Assembly (NCBI GenBank): GCA_047611865.1
Contig: JBLFWS010000018.1
Location: 1 to 33,976 of the forward strand
Direction: 5' to 3'
Source of the DNA: Chlamydiales bacterium
Lineage (GTDB): Bacteria > Chlamydiota > Chlamydiia > Chlamydiales > JBDQID01
DNA: 33,976 bases
The notes beneath the pieces were generated by a model. That model did not search any database, had not been told where the DNA came from, and saw nothing but the letters and a program-made list of their open reading frames with translations. Positions within the stretch are counted from its first letter, which is position 1. Every line of letters starts with the position of its first letter. Of the stretch, positions 19,407 to 33,715 are shown piece after piece. The translations under genes were made by a program, and so were the position numbers.

Positions 19407-22400
19407 ATGTCTACTCTTCGTCCATCCCCACCAAAAAATCAGTCTGGATTGTCTGCGACTGGTCTGGAAGAACTTAACATAAATTTTAGCCAGCCGGGTC
19501 TTCCGTATTGTCCAAGATACGCTCAATTTGCGACGTTTTACTTAAAAGACAGCAAGGGCGATTCAAGCTATAAGTTGTTTATGGAGCTTGCAAAATTAAC
19601 AGATCAGTTTTGCAGGGAAACATCTTATAAAACAGTGGTGATCAGGGGGGTAAGCTTTGATCTATGGAAAAAGTGGAGCGAAAAGAAAACGTCTCAGCTG
19701 CCTTTGGGTATGGGAAATACATCTGTTTTAGAAGAATTAAACCCTCCATTTGCGAAAAGTGATGGTGATCTATGGTGCCATATCAAATCCGATGACCCTG
19801 CTAAGTGTCAGGAGCTATTCCAGATCATTGAAGATTTTCTAAGCATTGTCACAATTAAATGCGTCGCTACTGTTGCAGCCAAAAAAGAGCAAGAGCGCGT
19901 TCTTGGTGGACGCTTTGTGGATGGTGTTACAAATCCGGTAGATCCAGTGAATTTATCTTCTCGTGTCATTGTAGGAGATGAAGATCCTGAACATTTGGGA
20001 GCGGCCTATGCAATTGCCCAGCGTTTTGTACATAACTGGGAAAAACTCGATGACATGCAAGAGACTGCAAAAGAAGATATGATTGGCAGGAAAGAAAATG
20101 AAGTAGTTTTACCAATTGAAGACGAAAGAAGTCATATCAAATGCGTCAGACAAATGGACAAGGAAAGAATCAACTTCAGAATCATGCGTCAAGCAGTGCC
20201 TTACGGACAAAGGGATGGCAATCCTGGACATGAAAAAGGCGTATACTTTGCGGGTTATGCAAAAGAAACTTCTGTTTTTGATGAAGTATTAAGGGGCATG
20301 GCCGGAAACAAAAAAGGCTATATCAAAGACAAGCTGATGAATGTCACTCATAGTGCAGAAGGAAACTTCTGGTACATTCCTTCGGCGAAAGAACTCGAAT
20401 TGAAAGGTCAAGAGGGGGAAGTGAATGTCCCCATGGTCGAATACTTCAATACTAGAAGTAAAAACGACTACATGTTTTATAACACCAAGGACTACCTCAA
20501 AAACGTAAACAAAAGCAAGCTTGTTGAAGATTGTCCGATCAGCAACAGAATCACTCAACTTCTTGGTCTACAGTTTTCCCGATGGCGTGATGGTTGGTAC
20601 AAAAAAATCGAAACTCCACCTTTGGGTCACTTGAAAGATTACGTACTGAAGGAAGAAGAGTACGTATTAGATGGCTCTGCTGCTTTAAGAAAGGGTAAGG
20701 CAATTGAAATCAGCTTGAGTCGTGTACTGATAAGTAAAGAATACAGCAAGCGAGCAAACCTTTATAAGATCCATCCCGCAGAAATCATCGTGGGAAATAT
20801 GCCGCAACTATCTTTGGGAACCGGCTCTCAAGTGATGGAGTATTTAAGAGATGATGAAAAGATTTCCTTCTTCTTTAAGAACCTGAACGAATATTCAGCA
20901 TCGGGACATAACGTTCCAGATTATTCTCTTTTGGTAAAATTAGGTGCAGGTGAACTTAAAAGTCGCTTTGAAGAAAAGCTTAAAACGGCGACAGGGGAAA
21001 AAAAGGATTACTATCAGTCCGTTGTCTGGTCATTGAATGGCTTTTCAAACTTTGTCAGCAGCTACGGTGATCTGGCAATGGAAATGGCAAAAAGTTTGCC
21101 TGAAACAGAAAAAATGGAAATCCAGAATCTTGAAGAAATCTCCCGCAGAATGAAAAAGATAGCGACTAAAAAGCCCGAAGGTTTTTTAGAGTCCCTACAG
21201 CTTATTTTCATCATGAACTGTGCTTTACATCAAATCGGCGAGTCCATGTCCATAGGACGTCTGGATCAATGGCTGATTGACAGCTACAATGAAGATATAT
21301 CAAATGGATTGTTGAACAAAGAAAATGCACAGGAAATCCTCGATGCTTTCTGGCTGAAAATGGACGAGACTGTGCTTTATAACAGCACGCACATGAATGA
21401 CTACTTGAACTACGGAAGTGGTGCAGTTTTTTATTCAGCTGGTAATTTCCCTCAAGGGGCAGCCATGAACCAGTGGGTACAGCAGGTAACGGTGGGTGGA
21501 TACAAAGCAAACAATTCTGCAACACCCGAAGCTGCAAGCAATGATCTAACTGTCATGTGTCTTAGATCTGCTCGTCGTTTACCTATGAATGCACCTTGTT
21601 TATCTTTACGCGTTCATAAAGACATGGACCCCACACTTGTAGAAGAAGCTGCCAAAGCGGTCCTCAGCGGAGGAGCTCACCCGGTGTTGCTTCACGATGA
21701 TAAACTCATTCCTGCACTAAAAGCTAGTGGGCCGATGGATTTGGAAGATGCAAGGGATTACACAAGTGATGGCTGCTATGAACCAATTATTCAGGGTAAA
21801 ACTGAATGGGCATTTAGTTATGTTCCTGTTTTACCAATTGTTGGTATGGCCATGAATCAGGGTGCAACAATTATGGGTGCTGGGCCGACTCACTTGAATG
21901 GTTTAAAAGAAGGCTGGAATTCTCCTGTGGCACAAGACATCAAGAACTTCGATGAGTTCATGGATATCTTCTTTACCCAATGGCGTTGGGCGATGAACAA
22001 GTTCTACAATAGCTTGATGAATGGTTATGGAGATCTTTGGAATGTTTGCCCAAGTCCACTATTTTCTTCCATGGTGCATGATACTCTGGAGACAGGGAAA
22101 GACATGACCAATGGGGGAGCGAGATATCATATCATAGCTCCGATGATGTGCGGCATGGCTAATACCATTGATTCCCTACATTCTATTAATAAAATGGTCT
22201 TTGATAAAGACAGCTGTATTACGACTCTCCCAGAGCTACTACAGACATTGCGTTGCAATTGGGGACAGAACATGATCGAGCCATGGAATAGTTCGATCGC
22301 AGGAGATATGCGAGCAGAAGATAAATCACTACGCTATAAGTCTCTTAGAGACTTTTCTCTGTCACTGAATAAGTTCGGACAGGGAAATGATCCAGAGATT

Positions 22401-23042
22401 GTAGCTCTCGCGGAAAGAGTTGTGCAAGGATGTGTGGATATTATCCATGACTCTTTGGACAATGCGATACCTCCCATAAAAGATGCTTACGAAAAAATTA
22501 AAGAGAAATACAAACTTCCCAACAGGGACTTCGCTTTCACAGTGACCCCAGGTGTGGGTACTTTCGAAGACAATGTAGGCTTGGGAGAGGGCATGGGTGC
22601 ATCCGCTGATGGACGCACAATGGGAACACCAATTGCAGAGGATTTTGCTCCTGCACCATCCCCACAGGATCTTCCCATAGACAATAAGCCTCGCAATATT
22701 TTTAAAGCTTTGAAAGACTGGAACATCGAGGCGATTAATTTGGGTATCTCCAATGCCGCTCCAGTTGATGTAAATATTCATGAAGAATTTCCATTAGAAG
22801 ATTTGTCAAAAGTTATTACTCAATTTGCCAATAGTGAAATTGGCTCGAATATGATGACCATTACATGTGGGGATACATCCACTTTTGAAAAAGCCGCACA
22901 ATTCCCTGAAAGATACGACCTTGTGAGAGTTCGTATGGGGGGATGGAGTGAATTTTTCGTGGCTATGTTTTCCAACCACCAACAACACATCATGCGAAGA
23001 CCTTTCTTCGTTCACCAAGACTGTCCCCATAAGCATCAATAA
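19407..23042 (+). CDS. Dyp-type heme peroxidase fused to a glycyl radical enzyme (PFL-superfamily) domain
   Basis: Aa ~35-330 are DyP: DLWCHI, GRFVDG (GxxDG distal Asp), QRFVHN, IGR, SHIK (proximal His), IMRQAVPYG (distal Arg), YIPS. Aa ~420-1205 are GRE: EIIVG, GHNVPDY, SIGRLDQ, DGCYEP (Cys loop), ASADGR, AAQFPERY, RVRMGGWSEFF (Gly loop). AGGAG RBS. Confidence 0.9.
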   Translation: MSTLRPSPPKNQSGLSATGLEELNINFSQPGLPYCPRYAQFATFYLKDSKGDSSYKLFMELAKLTDQFCRETSYKTVVIRGVSFDLWKKWSEKKTSQLPLGMGNTSVLEELNPPFAKSDGDLWCHIKSDDPAKCQELFQIIEDFLSIVTIKCVATVAAKKEQERVLGGRFVDGVTNPVDPVNLSSRVIVGDEDPEHLGAAYAIAQRFVHNWEKLDDMQETAKEDMIGRKENEVVLPIEDERSHIKCVRQMDKERINFRIMRQAVPYGQRDGNPGHEKGVYFAGYAKETSVFDEVLRGMAGNKKGYIKDKLMNVTHSAEGNFWYIPSAKELELKGQEGEVNVPMVEYFNTRSKNDYMFYNTKDYLKNVNKSKLVEDCPISNRITQLLGLQFSRWRDGWYKKIETPPLGHLKDYVLKEEEYVLDGSAALRKGKAIEISLSRVLISKEYSKRANLYKIHPAEIIVGNMPQLSLGTGSQVMEYLRDDEKISFFFKNLNEYSASGHNVPDYSLLVKLGAGELKSRFEEKLKTATGEKKDYYQSVVWSLNGFSNFVSSYGDLAMEMAKSLPETEKMEIQNLEEISRRMKKIATKKPEGFLESLQLIFIMNCALHQIGESMSIGRLDQWLIDSYNEDISNGLLNKENAQEILDAFWLKMDETVLYNSTHMNDYLNYGSGAVFYSAGNFPQGAAMNQWVQQVTVGGYKANNSATPEAASNDLTVMCLRSARRLPMNAPCLSLRVHKDMDPTLVEEAAKAVLSGGAHPVLLHDDKLIPALKASGPMDLEDARDYTSDGCYEPIIQGKTEWAFSYVPVLPIVGMAMNQGATIMGAGPTHLNGLKEGWNSPVAQDIKNFDEFMDIFFTQWRWAMNKFYNSLMNGYGDLWNVCPSPLFSSMVHDTLETGKDMTNGGARYHIIAPMMCGMANTIDSLHSINKMVFDKDSCITTLPELLQTLRCNWGQNMIEPWNSSIAGDMRAEDKSLRYKSLRDFSLSLNKFGQGNDPEIVALAERVVQGCVDIIHDSLDNAIPPIKDAYEKIKEKYKLPNRDFAFTVTPGVGTFEDNVGLGEGMGASADGRTMGTPIAEDFAPAPSPQDLPIDNKPRNIFKALKDWNIEAINLGISNAAPVDVNIHEEFPLEDLSKVITQFANSEIGSNMMTITCGDTSTFEKAAQFPERYDLVRVRMGGWSEFFVAMFSNHQQHIMRRPFFVHQDCPHKHQ

Positions 23043-23060
23043 AAAAATATGAACAAGGCG

Positions 23061-23097
23061 CCGTCAGGTATTCACTACCTGACGGGTTCTTTAATTT
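23061..23097 (+). terminator. Intergenic hairpin, terminator or attenuator-like
   Basis: Perfect 10-bp stem CCGTCAGGTA-ttcac-TACCTGACGG followed by an interrupted T-rich tract (GTTCTTTAATTT). Confidence 0.6.
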
Positions 23098-23111
23098 TAA
23101 AGAGGTGACAG

Positions 23112-24122
23112 ATGTTACAAGCACTTAATGATTTAAATGCCAGTGCAGTTGACTGGTGGTTTATTTACAAGATGCCCGACAATATTGGGCCTGATTCAGA
23201 CACCAAAGGTGATGAATATCTATACTACGATCCAGAAACAGGAAAAGGATTAACAAAATCTGACAAGGTTTTAGATAAAGGACAAAGCGCACTGGACGTG
23301 ACTTTGGAGCAGGTATTTAATTCAAAAGGAATGGAAGATGGCAATAGCTACATCCTTTATAACGATGAAAAACCCGATTCGGATAAAAACCGTTCCAGCT
23401 GTGGTCACTGTAAAGGGATTTTAGCTTTCAACAAAAAAAATAACACGGGATTCTATCTTCTTCATTCGACACCACGATATCCGCTGGATAAGAAAAGTGA
23501 ACTTCCTAGTAACGAATTAATTTATGGGCAGACCTATATTTGTGTCACTCTCCCAGACTATGAAACAGCCAATCGTATCGCAGAAGTATTGCGCACACAG
23601 CATGAACCACAAGTATACACCACTCATTTAAGTGAAGACATTACGAAAGATGAAAGTGTGTACAAATTGGGTAGTAACAATAACACCCCCGAGCCCGAAG
23701 AACCAACTTTCATTAGCTTCAAATCAAAAGCCGGCAAGGAATTTCAACTGGCTGGAAAAAATCGTAAATGGGGTAAAGATTTCTGGATTGATTTGATAGG
23801 GCCGCATTTGGGTGTAAGTCTGAATGTAGAGAGCTGGAGACGCGGAGCATCTCCCGGAAATGAAGATTCAGATGGTAAAGACGAGACCTTAAATGCTCAA
23901 AACATTGACTTCACATCGGTTGGTTTGAAAGATTACACCTTTCATTACACAAAAGACCATTCCAAATGGGGAGTCAGTACAGATGCAGCAAATCCTTGGG
24001 TTTGTATAGCAGATATTAACCGCATGGTTTCTCAAGAGAAGCGTGGTGGTGGTGCTTTGATTTTTCAAGAAGAACAACTTTGGAAGAATTTGAAATCTGT
24101 AGAAAACACCGATACAAAATAA
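23112..24122 (+). CDS. Deoxyribonuclease II family protein (PLD superfamily)
   Basis: VDWWFIYKMP, YNDE.P, GHCKG (HxK 1), HSTPRYP, YGQTYIC, DHSKW (HxK 2) and WVCIADINR..SQEKRGGGAL. GAGGTG RBS; no signal peptide evident. Confidence 0.92.
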   Translation: MLQALNDLNASAVDWWFIYKMPDNIGPDSDTKGDEYLYYDPETGKGLTKSDKVLDKGQSALDVTLEQVFNSKGMEDGNSYILYNDEKPDSDKNRSSCGHCKGILAFNKKNNTGFYLLHSTPRYPLDKKSELPSNELIYGQTYICVTLPDYETANRIAEVLRTQHEPQVYTTHLSEDITKDESVYKLGSNNNTPEPEEPTFISFKSKAGKEFQLAGKNRKWGKDFWIDLIGPHLGVSLNVESWRRGASPGNEDSDGKDETLNAQNIDFTSVGLKDYTFHYTKDHSKWGVSTDAANPWVCIADINRMVSQEKRGGGALIFQEEQLWKNLKSVENTDTK

Positions 24123-24144: not shown

Positions 24145-25683
24145 ATGACCGATAAACAATATCTGGAAGCCAACGAAAAAGCGCTGGAGAACATAGAGCA
24201 TATTGTGGTTCTAATGCTTGAAAATCGCTCTTTTGACAATTTGCTCGGATGGTTATATGACGGTGTTGAAGTACCCGATGGCCAGATATTTGAGGGATTA
24301 AATGAAAGTATGTGGAATCCCTTGAATAATATAGATACGGATGGAAACCCGTTTGTAGAGAAAGTCTCTGTCGCGAAAAACGGGATGCCTCGTACAATCG
24401 GAAGAAAAAAGAGATCAGTTAAAGAAGATTTTACTCTACCAGCTCCCGATCCAGGAGAGGGCTACAAAGATACCAACGCCCAGCTCTTTGGAGTGTATAA
24501 GGTAGATGACATCTACCCGCCGGCTCCCACAAATATGGGCTTCGTCAACAACTACAAAGATGCCATGCTCTACGGAACATACTCCTTTGGAGATGCTCCC
24601 ACAGATCCAAGAGACATCATGGTTTGCTATACACCGGAACAAACCCCGGTATTGAGCACGCTTGCTAAAGAATTTGCGGTCTGTGACCACTGGCATTGTT
24701 CAGTGCCTTCTCAGACTTTGCCAAACCGTGATTTTGTTCATGCAGCAAGTTCCAGTGGTAATGTGAACAACAAACCTAATGATACATGTAACGCAAGAAC
24801 AGTGTTCAATCAATTGCAAGATGCCATTGATGGCGGGCGTAATGAATTAAGCTGGGGTGTTTATTCCGGCACATCCAAGGGTAAAGCCTTTTCATTGACT
24901 CGTACAATCATGACACAATTGCATGACATCAAATACAACGATAATTTTTATGGTATAGATCAGTTTTATAAAGATGCAAAAGCGGGAAGTCTTCCAAGCT
25001 ACAGCTTTTTAGAGCCGCAGTTTTCAGGACCAGATCAAAATGATCAGCATCCACCACAGGATATTCGTTATGGGGATAAGTTGATTGCCGATGTCTATAA
25101 TGCTGTTTTACAGTCACCCAAATGGGAAAATACTTTGCTTGTAATCACCTATGACGAGCATGGGGGTTGTTTTGATCACGTAGCTCCTCCCAATGGAGCC
25201 AAGTCTCCGATTGAGGGTGCCGGTGAAGATGGCTTTCGTTTCAACCGTTTTGGTGTCAGAGTACCAACTGTTTTAATCTCGCCATTGATCAAAAAAGGCT
25301 GTGTGGCTAGACCTGCTGGCTGGACTCCTTTTGATCACGCATCGGTTATATCGACTGTTAGAAAAACGTTTAAACTGGACAAGCCTTTAAATGCTCGTGA
25401 CGAGGCAGCACCGGATTTGGGTTGTGTGCTGACTCTGACCACAGCAAGAAAAGACAAGCCGGAGGTAAAGCCTTTGGCCCTTCCTAAACAGATTGAATCC
25501 AGTCATGTGAATGACTTACACCGTATGGCGGAAGATGCTTTGCATTCCGTAACGGGTACAAAGCGTAAAGAAGATCATTCGATTCATGATTATATTCATG
25601 AAACTTACCATGATCATTTTTATGCTAAAAAATCCAGCAAGGATGCAACGGATAAACGAGAAGTGGCTGATGTGGGTGCGTAA
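24145..25683 (+). CDS. Phospholipase C / acid phosphatase (phosphoesterase family, PlcH/AcpA type)
   Basis: IEHIVVLMLENRSFD, DPGE, QTLPNR (Thr nucleophile), LPSYSFLEP, DQHP, TYDEHGG.FDHV.PP and GVRVP. AGGAG RBS; no Sec/Tat signal evident. Confidence 0.92.
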   Translation: MTDKQYLEANEKALENIEHIVVLMLENRSFDNLLGWLYDGVEVPDGQIFEGLNESMWNPLNNIDTDGNPFVEKVSVAKNGMPRTIGRKKRSVKEDFTLPAPDPGEGYKDTNAQLFGVYKVDDIYPPAPTNMGFVNNYKDAMLYGTYSFGDAPTDPRDIMVCYTPEQTPVLSTLAKEFAVCDHWHCSVPSQTLPNRDFVHAASSSGNVNNKPNDTCNARTVFNQLQDAIDGGRNELSWGVYSGTSKGKAFSLTRTIMTQLHDIKYNDNFYGIDQFYKDAKAGSLPSYSFLEPQFSGPDQNDQHPPQDIRYGDKLIADVYNAVLQSPKWENTLLVITYDEHGGCFDHVAPPNGAKSPIEGAGEDGFRFNRFGVRVPTVLISPLIKKGCVARPAGWTPFDHASVISTVRKTFKLDKPLNARDEAAPDLGCVLTLTTARKDKPEVKPLALPKQIESSHVNDLHRMAEDALHSVTGTKRKEDHSIHDYIHETYHDHFYAKKSSKDATDKREVADVGA

Positions 25684-25714: not shown

Positions 25715-25757
25715 AAAAATAGGCCGTGCTTGTCATTGACAATCACGGCCTATTTTT
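25715..25757. terminator. Bidirectional intrinsic terminator after the three-gene cluster
   Basis: AAAAATAGGCCGTG-cTTGTCA-t-TGACAAt-CACGGCCTATTTTT. Confidence 0.85.
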
Positions 25758-25927
25758 ATGCCCCCGCATAAACGGGGTACGAAGTCCAACGGTACGAAAA
25801 GTTGCGCTAAGGACCTCAGAACGATTATAGAGTACTTACAGGATTTCATTGCACTCGAATTCAGGTTAATGTCCAAGTCGTAAGTCGAGAAATTGCAGAG
25901 AGGGATTTTTCTTAAAGCAACTTTTCG

Positions 25928-27822
25928 GTGCGCCACGAGGCGTATAATCACTCGCGGCTGAGAGAGCCGCCACAGAAGCACCGACCCAGTGCAATGTGTA
26001 CCGAGTCTTGAGTACATGAAGGTAACAACATGGATTAAGCGTAGACAGGAATGCTGTAGGCCGTAAGCCATAGGCTGAAGTGATTGAGCTCCGTTAACGC
26101 TTATTTTTAGGTGGGGCGATGAGGTCGAAAACTCAGAAGGCAACATCATCCGGACCAGCAATGGGCAAGGTGCGGGTGACCATCTCGGGGTCAGAGAGCA
26201 TGGCATGCAGTAAAAGTGATTATATGAACGTGGGAGATCCTATTCGCTCTTCAAAGTAAGTATGGGAAGACAAGTGTAATAGCAAGGAATTCCAAACGGC
26301 GAATAGGAAGTCAGACAGGGTATAGTACTGTTGAAGCTGAGTAATGTCAGTGGAGGGAAGGCCCTGGGGTAAAATCAACCTTGTAGGAGAAACGTGTGGA
26401 ATCCAACAGAGATCCAATAAGCACGAACACAAAACTGAATAGGATAGCGTGGCTATCGGCTAAAGAACCTGATAAGAAGTTTGATCAACTTATGCATCAC
26501 TTTAATGTAGGTTCACTGGCTGTCTGTTTCCACGAGCTGGATGGAAAGAAGGCCGTAGGGATAGATGGAATTGACAAGGCGCGTTACGGAGAAAACTTGG
26601 ATAACAATCTTGAAGACTTGACCGCACGTATGAAACGTATGGCATACAAGCCAGCGCCTGTGCGACAAGTTCTAATACCAAAGGAAGGAAAGCCTGGGGC
26701 AACCCGTCCATTAGGTATTAGTAACTTCGAAGACAAGCCTGTTCAGAAAATGATGCAGAAGATATTGGAAAGTATCTACGAGCCTCTCTTCTTGAACTGT
26801 TCCTTTGGGTTCAGGCCACGAAGAGGTTGCCACGATGCTATCAGAGCTCTGCATCAACATCTGTATAGGTACGAAATCCAAACAGTGCTGGATGTGGATC
26901 TAGCAAATTTCTTCGGTACAATAGATCACGCGATCCTGCTAAATATGCTAAAGGAGAAAATCAAGGATCAGAAACTGATTCGATATCTCACACGCATGCT
27001 AAAAGCAGGAGTATTATTATCAGGAAATGACTTGACTATGAGTGAGGAAGGGGTTCCGCAGGGTTCTGTGTGCAGTCCCGTCCTTTCTAATATATTTGCG
27101 CACTATGTAATAGACGACTGGTTTGACAAGGTGGTCAAGATACACTGTTGTGGCCAGGTAGAAATGTTTAGATACGCTGATGACCTAGTGGTCTGTTGCC
27201 AATATGAACATGATGCCCGGAAAATTAACAAAGCTCTTAAAGGTAGACTGGAAAGTTCAAACTTCGAATTAATGAAGAGAAAACTAAACTAGTCTCTTTT
27301 AATAAGCGTAACTAGCACAGTGACAATAGACCAAAGGCCTTTGATTTCCTTGGGTTGACATTCTACTGGGGACGCTCTCGAAACAAAGGCGCTATAATTC
27401 GCAAAGTAAAAACAGAGGGGAAACGCCTGCGGAGTAAACTTACGAATGTCAATCTGTGGTGCCGCAAAATTAGAAACAGGTATCGACTACCTGTTGTATG
27501 GAAGCTCTTTTGCTTAAAGTTGGAAGGACATATCAGATACTATGGTATATCAACCAATCTTCAGGCGGTTAAAAAGTTCCGACATCAGACAAGGCGAATA
27601 TTATTTAAACACCTGAATCGTCGTAGCCAACGAAAATCCTGTAATTGGGAGCAGTTTGAAATGTATGAAAAGTTACATCCTCTTCCCAAAGCGAGGATCT
27701 GCCATGCGCTTTTCTGAAAGCCGATAAATACGTGAATGGTTTTATCTTGAGCCCGTTGCGTTAGTTGCGCATGGCGGGTTCTAACGAGGGGGGAGTTTGG
27801 GTGACCAGCTCCTCTACCCTCT
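25928..27822 (+). mobile_element. Group II intron (1895 nt)
   Basis: 5' end GTGCG at 25928. Domain V GAGCCCGTTGCG...GCATGGCGGGTTC at 27749-27781 with the AGC triad. Domain VI has a bulged A at 27816, seventh from the end. Boundaries are independently confirmed because excision restores the 38-bp IR. Confidence 0.92.
26396..27717 (+). pseudogene. ltrA: Group II intron reverse transcriptase/maturase, disrupted, no endonuclease domain
   Basis: AVGIDG, IPKEGK..TRPLGI, SFGFRP, DLANFFGTIDH, GVPQGS..SP.LSN and RYADD; domain X FDFLG and LEGHIRYYG. One-base deletion at about 27252-27254 (restoring LEKFKLRINEEKTK) and an in-frame TAG at 27313-27315. Confidence 0.9.
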
Positions 27823-27891
27823 TGCCGTTGGACTTCACACCCCTATTAGGAGTTTAAAGTAAACTGAAATGCAAATGGAGTAAAATTTATA

Positions 27892-28582: not shown

Positions 28583-29330
28583 CCTAAATTCCCGAAAAAA
28601 TGTAGCTAGGTCGTGCCTGAAAGCTGAATGTTTAGACTCGCCAAAATCTCTCGTTGAGGTTTTGTAACTTCGGTGAGGATATGGCCATATTTGCCTGAGT
28701 ACTTGATTTTCGTTAACGTATCCATTTCTTGTAATAGTTCACGCGCCGTATACCTTTCAATAAGATTTGACTTTCTCATCTCATTGCGCAATGCACTTAT
28801 ATAGATGAGAGCGATGAATTGAACAAACAGCCTACCATCAACGGTCGATGAATTGTGCATTCGAAGACGCTTCATGTCGATTTGATTCTTTAAATCATCA
28901 AAACACTTCTCTACCACATCTTTGTTACGGTAGATCTGTAGAGCCTCAACTGGATTTTTGATTCCACTGCTCAATAATACCTGAAAGCCTGCATAACGTT
29001 TAATGTACTGACTGACAGCTATCGTGTTAAACGAGACCTTCATTCCTCTTTTAGGTGTGGTCTTTATTATGAAGAACGTGTCGTAGGCTTCTTGATGGCT
29101 GCTAATCAGAGTTCCTGACTCTAATTCCTCCTTGTATCCCATCAACTCTTCATTGAATTGATCAACGGCATCCGCCCGCGCACGGGCATTGTAGTAAAGT
29201 TGTATGTAGCAACGCCGCTTACTCGTTCCCCATGAATACAGGTGCGAGTGAACATAAAGGATCTCATTATCAATCTTCCTATATCCCTCAGGCCCGTGGA
29301 TTGTCTCATAAATATCATCAATGACATGCT
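28583..29330 (-). mobile_element. IS1634-like element remnant (C-terminal part of the transposase plus one end)
   Basis: YAGFQVLLS, ALQIYRNKDVVEKCFDDLKN, RLRMH...DGRLFVQFIALI and TEVTKPQREIL; stop at 28606. Putative IR CCTAAATTCCCG at 28583. The first ~28 aa of ORF 28606-29415 are antisense Tn3 sequence. Confidence 0.8.
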
Positions 29331-32131
29331 GTACCCATTTATTGTTTATAAGGAAACCTATGCCCAACATCAGCGTTTGATTCTGGAGTACTTCGGCTAT
29401 AGCCCATTCGATCAATCTGTAAAGGTTTCCATCACCAGAGAGATTGAAGCTCTTGTTAGGGTTCAGTTTCGACCAAAGTTGGTATTGCTCGACAGTATTC
29501 AGATGCTGACACGCAAAAAGATCGCGATTCCAAGTTACAACGTGTTGGCTAATTTAATCATCGAAGCCATCAATCAACACCACGTTGAGCTTTGTGCGAT
29601 CGTAAATGATTATCTCGATAAAAATCAATACACTAAGCTCAACGATCTGTTGGAAAAGGAACCTGAAAACAGTTCTGACGAGGGCTGGCGCTATCGCCTT
29701 ACGTTACTAAAGAAGCCTTACCAATCCACGCAACCGTCGAAAATCAAAGCTAATCTGGCAGATCTAAATATCTTACAGACTCTCTACCATGACCTTATTC
29801 CAGTTGTGAAACGCCTAGACTTAAGTTACGAACGCATTCGATACTACGCCTACTCGGTCATCAAGGCACAGGTTCCACAGATCTCGCGCCGCACCAATGA
29901 AGACCGCTATCTGCACCTTATCGCCTTCGTTGTGTACCAAACATTCAGACTCAACGACACTTTGATAGATACGCTGTTGAGTGCTGTGCAAAACAGTAGT
30001 TAATACCGTGGAGAAAGATCAAAAAGAAACATATTTCCAGGAGAGAGAACAGCGCAACCAGTCTTTTTCAGTGCTCGTTGATGAGCTTCGGAAAAACGTT
30101 CATAATACACTTTCGGAAATCAGATATATCGTAGCTGATGGGCAGCTAGATAATGATCAGAAAATTTCTTTAATCAACACGAGATTAAATTCAGAAAATG
30201 GCAAGCCGCATCAGGTCGATAAGAAAATTGACGAGTTCAAAAAAAATGCAGTAAAACTTCAGAGATGTAATGGCTATTTTGCATTACTTGAGTCACGTTC
30301 CATTAAGTTGCAACACCGCGTCTCTGACATCATACGCCAAGTGCAGTTCGCACCAAATTGCAGTAAACCGGCATTGTGGAGTGCTTTGCAGTATTATCAG
30401 GAAAATGATGGTAACGTTAACAAAAACGCGCCTGTTGAATTTTTATCTATCGAATAACGATTTGAATTGACCGCTCAGGATGGAAAGTTCCGAATTTCAT
30501 TGTATAAGGCATTACTCTTTATCAAAATTGCTGAGGCTATCAAGTCTGGAGCATTGAATCTAATCCAATCAGAAAAATACCGCCCTCTCGACGAATACTT
30601 GATTCCAAAGGTTGATTGGGAAGCAAATCGTGACGAATATCTTCAACGAGCCAATCTCAGGGATTTTACCGACTGCAAGACCTCTTTAAAAACGCTTGAT
30701 CGAGAACTCGAGAGCAGTTACCAAAAAACCAACGAGAATTTTAAATCAGGCAAAAATCCATATCTGAAAATGCGAACCAACAATACCTTTCATGTGAGTA
30801 CACCTAAGCAAGAGGAAGTGGAATGTTTGTCTCTGGGAGATTTTTTTCCAGAACGAAAGTATATCTCTATGCTTGAGATGCTTGCAACAGTCGACCACGC
30901 TACGAATTTTCTCAACGAGTTTGAACACTGGCAGGTCAAATACCAACGCGCTAAACCAACCAAGAAAATTTTATTTGCCGGTATCATGGGATACGGCTGT
31001 GATATAGGTCACCGAAAACTGGCTCAGATTTCCAAACAGATCGATGAGGCTGAGCTGAATAATACGGTCAATTGGTATTTCTCACTCCAGAATATACAGA
31101 ACGCCAACGATCGCATCCTGCAATTTACTGATAGGATGAATTTACCGAACATATACCGTAGAGAATCCGATGTACTGCACACATCAAGTGATGGACAGAA
31201 ATTTGAAGTTGCTGTGGATTCCTTAAACGCCAATTATTCCTTTAAATACCTGGGAAAAGACAAAGGTGTCAGCGTGGTGACTTTCATCGATATGCGTAAC
31301 TTGATGTGGCACTCCACAGTGATAAGCTCCGCTGAAAGGGAAGCAGCCTATGTGATCGACGGTCTGATTCATAACGATGTAATAAAAAGTAACATAAATT
31401 CCACTGACACTCATGGGTATTCGGAAATTGTATTTGGAGCAACCCACCTCCTAGGATTTGAATTCGCTCCAAGAATAAAAGGCCTTAGTCGGCAGCATCT
31501 CTGTGCTTTCAAGAATCGTAAGCATTACGAGAAGAAAGGGTATGTGCTGCTACCAGACCGCTATATCCGCGAGTCTCTCATTGAGGACAAATGGGATGAA
31601 GTTCTACGCTTTATAGCGACCATCCAATTGAAGTTTACGACTGCCTCACAGCTCTTTAAACGTCTGAACTCCTACTCCCGGCAACACCCGCTTTACCGGG
31701 CCCTCAAAGAATTTGGCAAGATTCCAAAGACTCTCTTTATTTTGAAGTATCGTGACGATCACCAATTTAGGCAGGCAATCGAGAAACAACTTAATAAAGT
31801 GGAAGGATCCAATAAATTTTCCAAAGCTATTTCTTTCGGCCATAACCACGAGTTCATCCAAAGTGAGAAGGAGGACCAGGAAATTGCCGAAAGCTGCCGG
31901 CGATTGATTAAAAATGCAATCGTATGCTGGAACTACCTTTATCTCTCACGCAAAATTAACAAAGAGAAAAATGAGGAACGCAGGGCTGAACTGACAGAAT
32001 CGATTCGTAACGGATCGGCAGTAACCTGGAAACATTTCAATCTACATGGAGAATTCGATTTTTCGGATGAGAGAATGGTCGATTCGATAGGCTTGGCTCT
32101 TTCCAAAAATTCGGTTTTAAAACGAGACTGA
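29330..32131 (+). pseudogene. tnpA: Tn3-family transposase, 5'-truncated and disrupted
   Basis: SSDGQKF, NANYSFKY.G, EAAYVIDGL, STDTHGYSE..FGATHLLG..FAPRIK, ALKEFGKI.KT.FIL.Y, QLNKVE and NAIVCWNYLY. Frameshift at A4 29990-29993; in-frame TAA at 30455-30457. Left boundary approximate. Confidence 0.9.
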
Positions 32132-32239: not shown

Positions 32240-33715
32240 CTACTCGCCCAAAAATCCAGAGTGAAGAAAGGCGCGAACCTCTTCTCTTATAGGGGCGAGC
32301 TCTTGTTGTGCAACCCTTTCTCGAACTTCTGCTCTTTTTTTATTCTGGGCTTCTATTATAGGCTCAAACTCTGCCATCGCCAATTGAAGTTCTTCTAATT
32401 GCTGTAAAAGCTTATCGTCTACCGCCAGCCTTTCTCCTGAATCTTGATGTAGCATTTTCTTGATCAAACCTTTTAGACCATTTTCGATAGAGTATCCCCA
32501 ATTTCCTTCTCCCTTCTCTTCAAGATGTCTTGTTTGATGTACACTTGCATGAGCAGAAGCCCAAGCCATATTATTTGAGGGCTGAAAATAAGGACTACGA
32601 AAGATATCTGGAAGGACAGTGAAGAGAACTTCATACATTGTCATTCCTAGTGCATATCCGTCTGCTCTTTTGGGATTGCCAATAGATTTTCGCCTCCAAG
32701 CTTCAGGACAAATATGAGTAGGTGTTCCTTTTAGTGTAACGCGTTCTCCTGTGCGTGCTATAAAATCAAAATCTGTTACTTTTACTTGGTGGCCACAAAC
32801 CTTTCCATCAGCATCCCGAATAGGACAAATAACAATATTTTGAGGCTTAATATCTAGGTGCACGACACCTCTTTTGTGCATTTCCTTGATACTTTCAACT
32901 ACAGAGCACATAATTTTTATTCTTTCTGTAAGAGTCAAATGTGGACTTTCTTTTAAAAATTCATGTAAATCTTTGCCTTCCACGTAGGGCTGGAGAGTCT
33001 TCATTTTTAACGATCCGTTCTTTAGGTAGGTGATAACTCGAGTGTGTACAAACCCAGACAGCTCAGGTCTTGGCGAAGCCCCTTTACCAAAAAGGCTTTC
33101 TAAACAGCTCATAAATACATTAGGAGTTGGAGCACTTTTTTTGAAGGTTCCAAGAGCGACTCGATTGCCCGTGCCGCCTTGAGCTTCTTTTACGACTTTC
33201 ATTCCACCTTTACCAAGAATATTATCTCGATTTGTCGCCGATGTTTTGTGTTTTTTTCTAATTACCGTAAAACTACCATCTTCTTCTTTGGTTAAAATAA
33301 TAGAAGCTTTTAATTGATTATTTACATCAATAAAAGTTCCTTTTCCTAAGCAAACAGAATTAATCTTGCAGCAAGTATCATCTTCTTCGTAATCTACAAT
33401 TTCGCTTTCCTCTGGACAAAACGGAGACGTTTTTAAAAAAGCTCTTTCTTCGTAAACTCTTTTAAACTTAATCATCTGGTCAGGGTTATTCTCCAAGCAT
33501 TTAATAATTACCCTCCTTTCAGAATCATCACACTGAAGAACTCCCCCGAGATCTCTAGTAAATCCAATATCCTCATCAGAGAGTCCTCTCTCTATTGATG
33601 GCTCTGTCCCTGAAGGAGAGGTATCTACACTAATACCTGCTGTGGTGGGTAAGCTAAAAAAGCTTTCTGCAGTTTCAAACTGTTTAAAAGACATATTTAA
33701 TGACATAGTTAACAC
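32240..33715 (-). CDS. Eukaryotic-like Ser/Thr protein kinase with an N-terminal extension (start possibly 33706)
   Basis: LGKGGMKVV, VVHLDIKPQN, VKVTDFD, GTPTHICPE, DGYALG and the subdomain XI Arg (SGER). GAGGTG lies upstream of the ATG at 33706. Confidence 0.88.
   Translation of the reverse strand: MLTMSLNMSFKQFETAESFFSLPTTAGISVDTSPSGTEPSIERGLSDEDIGFTRDLGGVLQCDDSERRVIIKCLENNPDQMIKFKRVYEERAFLKTSPFCPEESEIVDYEEDDTCCKINSVCLGKGTFIDVNNQLKASIILTKEEDGSFTVIRKKHKTSATNRDNILGKGGMKVVKEAQGGTGNRVALGTFKKSAPTPNVFMSCLESLFGKGASPRPELSGFVHTRVITYLKNGSLKMKTLQPYVEGKDLHEFLKESPHLTLTERIKIMCSVVESIKEMHKRGVVHLDIKPQNIVICPIRDADGKVCGHQVKVTDFDFIARTGERVTLKGTPTHICPEAWRRKSIGNPKRADGYALGMTMYEVLFTVLPDIFRSPYFQPSNNMAWASAHASVHQTRHLEEKGEGNWGYSIENGLKGLIKKMLHQDSGERLAVDDKLLQQLEELQLAMAEFEPIIEAQNKKRAEVRERVAQQELAPIREEVRAFLHSGFLGE

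Follow-up and report, generated by a model that had tools for sequence, protein, structure and literature searches.

In a stretch of 33,976 nucleotides from a Chlamydiales bacterium (contig JBLFWS010000018.1 of assembly GCA_047611865.1, referred to below as the window), which belongs to a 3.59-Mb draft genome (G000), a group II intron of 1895 nt (25928-27822, plus strand) was found to split a 38-bp terminal inverted repeat (IR) of the Tn3 family. Comparison with related sequences suggests, with a probability that we place at about 0.8, that a now decayed, endonuclease-less intron of the RF02005 type, with a 438-aa reverse transcriptase (RT)/maturase, retrohomed into this repeat. Its closest relatives support the view that a sub-lineage of these introns, and not the whole RT family, homes to Tn3 IRs.

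The intron begins with GTGCGCCA (GTGCGCC first), in which GTGCG at 25928 corresponds to the conserved 5' end GUGYG, and it ends with CTACCCTCT. Its 5' part matched the Rfam model RF02005 (group-II-D1D4-6) at 25961-26200 (cmscan, 123.5 bits, E 7.6e-35, gathering score 49) over the complete model (positions 1-225 of 225); going by the numbering of the Rfam models, RF02005 may correspond to class F. The match to RF00029 (domains V-VI) at 27747-27822 also covered the model from end to end (1-77 of 77) and stopped exactly at 27822. Folding of the last 78 nt gave hairpins for domains V and VI (-40.3 kcal/mol, z -4.5); in that of domain VI an A bulges out at 27816, seven bases before the intron 3' end. 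Once the open reading frame is excluded the ribozyme is small (about 580 nt).

A repeat search of the window returned two inverted pairs (25795-25811/25911-25927, of 17 nt, and 25769-25797/27820-27848), which proved to be the halves of one IR. When 25911-25927 was joined to 27823-27843, a 38-bp GGGG...TAAG repeat resulted, identical at 33 of 38 positions to the left IR (IR-L, 25774-25811), with mismatches at IR positions 6, 7, 20, 33 and 34. As the rejoined halves form a full 38-bp repeat, the intron sits between IR positions 21 and 22. In 100 shuffles of the window, a 32-base IR pattern was never matched. Both the intron and its position inside a Tn3 IR bear out what a first-pass annotation, made from the letters of the window, had proposed.

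The pair has the format of Tn3-family IRs (a length of about 38 bp, outer ends of GGGG, inner ends of TAAG, inverted orientation). The non-intron DNA of the element bounded by these IRs amounts to only about 175 bp, of which 99 bp lie between them, and no 5-bp target-site duplication was found at its flanks, which differ (TAAAC / TATTA), so that the element represents a remnant and not a fresh insertion. Assignment to the TIMEs (Tn3-derived inverted-repeat miniature elements), short non-autonomous elements with Tn3-type IRs and a 5-bp duplication, was considered and rejected: the IRs and the 175 bp fit, the duplication is lacking, and the element is best described as a remnant. Its interior carries an open frame that enters a TAA inside the IR (25913-25915, ...EIAERDFS*), as expected of the 3' end of the transposase gene tnpA, and the similarity of this frame to the tnpA end of a second genome of the order (G207, see below) is weak. 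The window IR pair encloses no tnpA, and tnpA fragments are located outside it, at 29242-32131. The lack of an enclosed tnpA and of a duplication, together with the short interior, would fit an unrelated 38-bp repeat or miniature element that is no functional Tn3 end, in which case targeting would be independent of Tn3 biology; this is very improbable in our view, given the GGGG...TAAG, 38-bp format and the fact that, in G207:C122 and in G332:C43 from a third genome of the order, repeats of the same type bound intact Tn3-family transposase genes (DDE_Tnp_Tn3) whose stop codon lies within the repeat.

The recognition of this site by the intron could be read from base pairing between exon-binding sites (EBS) and intron-binding sites (IBS). 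A hairpin at 26120-26135 (TGAG-GTCGAAAA-CTCA, loop GUCGAAAA) carries CGAAAA (26126-26131), placed in its terminal loop by the Rfam covariance model, and this motif is the exact complement of TTTTCG, the last six bases of the 5' exon (6 of 6 Watson-Crick pairs). ACGAAAA is probably a transposase-binding core of Tn3 ends. Covariation was evaluated in the window intron and 20 related introns, with 14 exon bases each and with five exon-loop and four stem pairs counted; a truncated second copy on the plasmid locus L007, which lacks the EBS1 region, was left out. In the exon-loop helix 92.4% of the cells were paired and all five pairs showed changes on both sides, and over the nine pairs together 90.5% of the cells were paired. 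None of 500 shuffles reached the observed pairing or covariation of the nine-pair structure, and pairing dropped to 37-44% when the partner was slid by 1-3 columns. Judged by this covariation, the loop at 26126-26131 is EBS1 in the intron family, so that the EBS1-IBS1 pairing claimed in the first-pass annotation stood, and the folding check that it had called for placed these bases inside the EBS1 loop. A second element, EBS2, is probably located in the internal loop just upstream of this hairpin, where in several relatives 5-8 bp can pair with the exon at about -13 to -8; the candidate in the window (ACGCUU) would form 5 bp with the CTTAGCGTACG variant of the IR.

Genomes of the same order were searched in two largely overlapping samples, 401 genomes for sequence patterns and 400 by DNA similarity. 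With two mismatches allowed in the junction pattern, true junctions were found only in G000 and G207, and the matches in 24 other genomes all corresponded to non-intron DNA. Three junctions were present in G207, in two IR variants (CTTAGCGCAACTTTTCG followed by the intron in contig C122; CTTAGCGTACGTTTTCG followed by the intron in C245 and C302), with intron 5' ends 86% identical to that of the window over the 135 nt available, as the contigs that carry the junctions break off after 89-135 nt of intron. The C122 and C245 copies share 89 identical intron bases, while their exons differ at 3 of 17 positions and the DNA further upstream is unrelated. In C122 the IR closes an intact tnpA of 1016 aa (DUF4158+DDE_Tnp_Tn3) with a resolvase gene alongside; the TAG stop of tnpA lies within the IR and is followed after 12 nt by the intron, which has the same sense as tnpA.

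In addition to genomes, 14 public sequencing runs were found to share words with the stretch, and contigs of four of them were compared with the window. One run from ice (X2) contained the same sequence as the window. A seawater run from another study (X4) provided a 1938-nt contig over 25922-27843 with 22 differences, its intron being 98.9% identical over 1922 nt, and this contig departs from the window directly after 27843, the outer IR end. In a further seawater run (X6), ...CCTTAGCGTACG+TTTTCG was followed by an intron 5' end 86% identical over about 120 nt, with other sequence upstream. Short contigs with the uninterrupted 38-bp repeat in other surroundings were present in X4 and X5.

Six junctions in three IR variants were thus recovered from four data sets (the window, G207 with three, X4 and X6), all at the same base and in the same orientation, with the inner IR half as the 5' exon. 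With the position unchanged across three IR variants and differing surroundings, the IR itself behaves like the sub-lineage's homing site. Such recurrence, together with the 6 of 6 pairs between EBS1 and IBS1 in the window, speaks strongly against a chance ectopic retrotransposition, whereby an intron with another natural site would have landed once in a look-alike IR; the family does contain ectopic copies, and the EBS1 loops of two of them (L151 and L132) mismatch their exons, yet for the Tn3 junctions we consider this explanation scarcely credible. A single ancestral insertion into one Tn3 IR, followed by hitch-hiking through descent, plasmid transfer or recombination and without any preference for IRs, accords with the occupation of only three IR variants, which are related (14-15 of 17 bases in common), with the 14% difference between the window and G207 introns, which is compatible with an old common descent of intron plus IR, and with the restriction of the junction to 2 genomes of the order. 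The G207 copies, however, are identical at their 5' ends beside differing exons and unrelated upstream DNA, which indicates recent moves into different IRs, and the nearly identical X4 intron has a different flank past the IR. Moreover, an interrupted IR is not expected to transpose as a unit, and EBS1 complements the site base for base, as it does in all well-behaved relatives. Hitch-hiking is therefore regarded as unlikely, and homing into Tn3 IRs is retained as the preferred reading.

Targeting of Tn3 ends is not a property of the wider family. In the DNA search, intron matches were detected in 39 of 400 genomes; most of these relatives, at 66-71% nucleotide identity, lie in unrelated 5' exons, each fitted by its own EBS1, and a second intron of G000 (C79, see below) and introns on Piscirickettsia salmonis plasmids also occupy unrelated targets with matching EBS1. 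Taken together, these introns show that the family has many targets. The proposal in the first-pass annotation of an intron lineage homing to Tn3 ends, which was to be checked on the targets of its relatives, was supported for the sub-lineage, whose closest examined members (G207, X4 and X6) all occupy this one position of a Tn3 IR, and not for the RT family as a whole.

Further searches covered plasmids and genome, metagenome and viral contigs. Plasmid blastn with the intron gave 51 records, mostly from Piscirickettsia and at best 69-70% identical, plasmid megablast gave no match, and plasmid tblastn gave 4370 records (best 61.5%); the RTs of the best characterised plasmid relatives are 35-39% identical. 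A scan of genome_contigs with GTGCGCCACGAGGCG included, among the matches listed (at least 120), six actinobacterial loci with an RT, 30-44% identical and in other targets, and a scan of metagenome_contigs with TTTTCGGTGCGCCA showed no intron junction among the matches listed (at least 120). In viral contigs, TTTTCGGTGCGCCACGA gave three matches, none of them an intron, and a search with P0046, an intact relative of the window RT, found no relative.

Several other introns were observed. G000 holds another member of the window intron's family, 63% identical (G000:C79, locus L008, minus strand, from 946 downwards, and G000:C28, locus L003); its target is ...GATTGTCAAACCCC, its EBS1 is GGGGUU, and the contig breaks within the intron. 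Relatives in G367 sit in a similar target (...GATTGTCACA). The copy L132 (G228:C148) has an EBS1 loop ACGAAAA, as if for a Tn3 IR, yet its 5' exon ends in AATTTGT, and it is possibly an ectopic or decayed copy. The introns at L005, L006 and L007, on Piscirickettsia salmonis plasmids, are 69% identical to that of the window, start with GAGCG and not GTGCG, and lie antisense within a transposase gene whose annotated halves (transposase; zinc-binding domain) flank them. On the plasmids pREB1-8 of Acaryochloris marina MBIC11017, five domain V/VI matches were found on three of the eight (pREB1, 2 and 6; L371, L372, L377-L379), all of them intron 3' ends; they share one 3' exon (CATGTCGAGAAAAAATCC...), which leads on into a coding region, and correspond to a multi-copy intron in a different, non-IR target.

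The RT frame in domain IV of the window intron is split in two, 26396-27292 (298 aa, RVT_1 with E 2.7e-32) and 27355-27717. The truncated frame scored 249 bits for TIGR04416, below the cut-off of 300 bits, vs. 305 bits for P0046, to which it is 82% identical. A frameshift occurs near 27251, where the near-identical seawater copy X4 has one more A, and the TAG at 27314-27316 corresponds to Tyr in intact relatives and to TAC in X4. With the extra A after 27251 and C for G at 27315, the X4 copy is thus free of both lesions. Judging from these two lesions in its frame, the window copy is dead. The RT frame stops about 25 residues past the conserved NWE.F motif, and no HNH/endonuclease domain follows the maturase region; PF01844 is present in none of the full-length closest relatives (77-82% identical, 438 aa), for which the domains on record are PF00078 or PF00078+PF00680 only. 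PF08388 is found in some more distant 438-aa relatives, and intact relatives consist of RVT_1 and at most GIIM.

Empty repeats were more numerous than occupied ones. Uninterrupted IRs of the form GGGG-N16-ACGAAAA-N7-TAAG numbered 18, in 13 of the 401 genomes (reversed control pattern, 0), compared with four junctions in the same sample, and the inner half of many of them is exactly the 5' exon of G207 and X6. A complete 4.6-kb Tn3-family transposon with both IRs empty is present in G332:C43 (L362, 56-4646); it carries a tnpA of 1002 aa, a resolvase gene and a SAM-methyltransferase passenger, its 5-bp flanks are not identical, and its IR reads CTTAGCGTACGTTTTCG directly followed by TTCC...CCCC. 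In the window itself, the minus strand of IR-L is an empty copy of the homing site (TTTTCG then T, inner half CTTAGCGCAAC), 100 bp from the occupied one; an endonuclease-less intron may favour one strand, or the RT may have died. Two further solo Tn3-type IRs of G000, both empty, are located at C113:8825-8862 and C20:21599-21636 (L319, 4600-4637); the one in C20 has one IBS1 mismatch (TTTCCG) and directly adjoins the stop codon for an LRR protein of 1138 aa, whose C-terminus is weakly HECT-like.

A number of observations weigh against homing into Tn3 IRs. The junction is present in only 2 genomes, the lineage being rare and the sample of close relatives small, and the 16 closest RT proteins (P0046-P0061, 77-82% identity) are known without DNA context. 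The introns of G207 and X6 are assembled for 89-135 nt only, with the EBS loops and the 3' junctions outside this range, and 3' junctions were searched for in G207 and none were found. The tree of the first 135 nt contained no supported clade of the window and G207, which are linked in it by highest identity and shortest path only. At the 3' end of the intron, the RF00029 match reached only 28.9 bits (E 4e-4), under the gathering score of 40. The EBS2 test was weak, with a mean own-exon pairing of 5.45 bp vs. 4.79 bp for mismatched combinations, and the candidate EBS2 of the window pairs with its own exon over 4 bp only. Finally, several IRs with a perfect TTTTCG followed by T are empty, including IR-L and those in G000:C113 and G207:C61; insertion may require more than IBS1, or may depend on strand and timing.

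Table 1. Features of the intron and of the interrupted element (window coordinates).
Feature	Position	Strand	Evidence
Left 38-bp Tn3-type IR (GGGG...CTAAG), uninterrupted	25774..25811	+	Repeat search, pattern scans
99-bp interior of the remnant element	25812..25910	+	Frame reading
Inner 17 bp of right IR, 5' exon; IBS1 TTTTCG at 25922-25927	25911..25927	+	Repeats, pairing
Candidate IBS2 (AAGC)	25915-25918	+	Pairing with candidate EBS2
Group II intron, 1895 nt	25928..27822	+	Ends, Rfam models, fold
Ribozyme domains I-IV (5' part)	25961..26200	+	RF02005
Candidate EBS2 (ACGCUU), tentative	26098..26103	+	Homology with relatives; weak statistic
EBS1 hairpin; CGAAAA at 26126-26131 pairs with IBS1	26120..26135	+	Rfam model, covariation
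N-terminal 298 codons of RT (RVT_1); frame lost near 27251	26396..27292	+	Profile match, seawater copy
Rest of RT/maturase frame (thumb/X region, no endonuclease domain); TAG at 27314-27316	27253..27717	+	Relatives
Domain V	27749..27782	+	RF00029, fold
Domain VI, bulged A at 27816	27786..27821	+	RF00029, fold
Outer 21 bp of right IR (TGCCGTTGGACTTCACACCCC), 3' exon; first base T is the expected IBS3	27823..27843	+	Repeats

The coordinates of the intron and of the interrupted element are listed in Table 1. In their neighborhood, the Tn3-family transposase gene at 29242-32131 is distributed over at least three broken frames, with no recognisable GGGG...TAAG repeat past its stop, and is adjoined on the opposite strand by a gene for a 491-aa Ser/Thr protein kinase (32240-33715). 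Directly upstream of IR-L, a near-perfect 21-bp hairpin followed by T's (25715-25757) probably acts as terminator for the gene at 24145-25683, which encodes a phosphoesterase. Further upstream, a 1211-aa open reading frame (19407-24122) contains a Dyp-type peroxidase C-terminal domain and a pyruvate-formate-lyase-like domain, and is followed by a 336-aa homologue of DNase II, a family known mostly from eukaryotes.

Group II introns are known in other mobile DNA, including IS elements, attC sites, relaxase genes and terminators. In a literature search that covered mostly titles and abstracts, no report of a group II intron inside a Tn3-family IR was found. The intron RmInt1 of Sinorhizobium meliloti (class D / IIB3) homes into ISRm2011-2 (see also PMC4615759 and PMC5894124). 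Like RmInt1, the window intron would combine a small ribozyme and an RT/maturase without DNA-binding or endonuclease domains with site-specific homing into another mobile element via EBS1, EBS2 and EBS3 and with presumed fork priming. Unlike it, the window intron has a terminal repeat as its target, whereas that of RmInt1 lies inside the transposase gene of the IS, and a Sinorhizobium plasmid RT is only 37.8% identical to P0046.

The specialisation of a lineage on the conserved recombination site of another system is shared with IIC-attC and terminator IIC introns (see also PMC7923331). The IIC introns do without EBS2, their EBS1 is short and the target that they recognise is a DNA hairpin, in contrast to the 6-bp EBS1 and the linear target within a transposase-binding repeat found here; membership in group IIC-attC was ruled out by the best model (RF02005), the 6-bp EBS1 and the non-hairpin target. 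In introns of groups IIE and IIF, according to PMC3753933, EBS2 is dispensable for splicing and a role in retrohoming has been suggested for it; the same source describes a small ribozyme, EBS1 and EBS2 in domain Id and IBS directly upstream of the splice site, features that the window intron would share with them.

Among elements associated with Tn3-family transposons, IS4321 and IS5075 (IS1111 family) insert at a fixed position and in a fixed orientation inside the 38-bp, Tn21-type IRs, interrupting them as the window intron does. Unlike these DNA transposons with a DEDD transposase, the element described here is an RNA-guided retroelement, and its specificity is readable from base pairing. 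A group II intron is also present in TnMERI1 / Tn5084 of Bacillus megaterium MB1, between tnpR and merB3, likewise inside a Tn3-family transposon but outside its terminal repeat, according to PMC6920998.

The following mechanism is consistent with these sequences. The intron RNA reads the strand of the IR leading from inside the transposon to the outside, with EBS1 CGAAAA pairing with TTTTCG (IR positions 27-22), and the intron is inserted between IR positions 22 and 21. Specificity may be increased by a short EBS2-IBS2 pairing with the inner IR end and by an EBS3 contact with the T at +1. Reverse splicing might take place into transiently single-stranded DNA at a fork, as established for RmInt1 and IIC introns, and cDNA would presumably be primed by the nascent strand at the replication fork, as in those introns, because the protein lacks an endonuclease domain. 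The intron RNA could come from transcripts that read through from tnpA. An IR split by 1.9 kb would not be a substrate for the transposase, so that the transposon would be crippled at that end, and splicing would restore the RNA only, not the DNA end. The intron may in this way immobilise and parasitise the transposon; since tnpA is still intact in G207, the host element need not yet have decayed.

A further possibility, which we hold to be distinctly unlikely, is that the lineage is adapted to replicative transposition as such, beyond recognition of the IR sequence. As terminal inverted repeats offer the same target on both strands, an endonuclease-less intron, dependent on a given template strand at the fork, would have one permissive copy available whatever the orientation of the transposon. 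In the strand-transfer intermediate, synthesis from the cut target would enter via the outer IR half, i.e. from the 3'-exon side, and could prime cDNA, so that the intron would spread preferentially during movement of the transposon and shut each end that it entered. If this were true, the intron would be a natural RNA-programmed brake on Tn3-family transposons, and, as the classical Tn3 end has the ACGAAAA core too, it might be possible to redirect its specificity to further ends of the Tn3 family.

Homing into Tn3-family IRs, if correctly read from these sequences, would make a transposase-binding terminal repeat a new target class for group II introns and would provide an RNA-guided counterpart to the habit of IS4321 and IS5075. 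The recognition rule is readable directly from base pairing and is thus testable by a standard two-plasmid retrohoming assay; the system would also offer a test of how endonuclease-less introns find their primer, and might serve as a natural scaffold with which conserved transposon ends could be targeted. One mobile element would here clearly be disabling another at the very sequence required for movement, and such events may explain some of the 'broken' Tn3 ends present in genomes.

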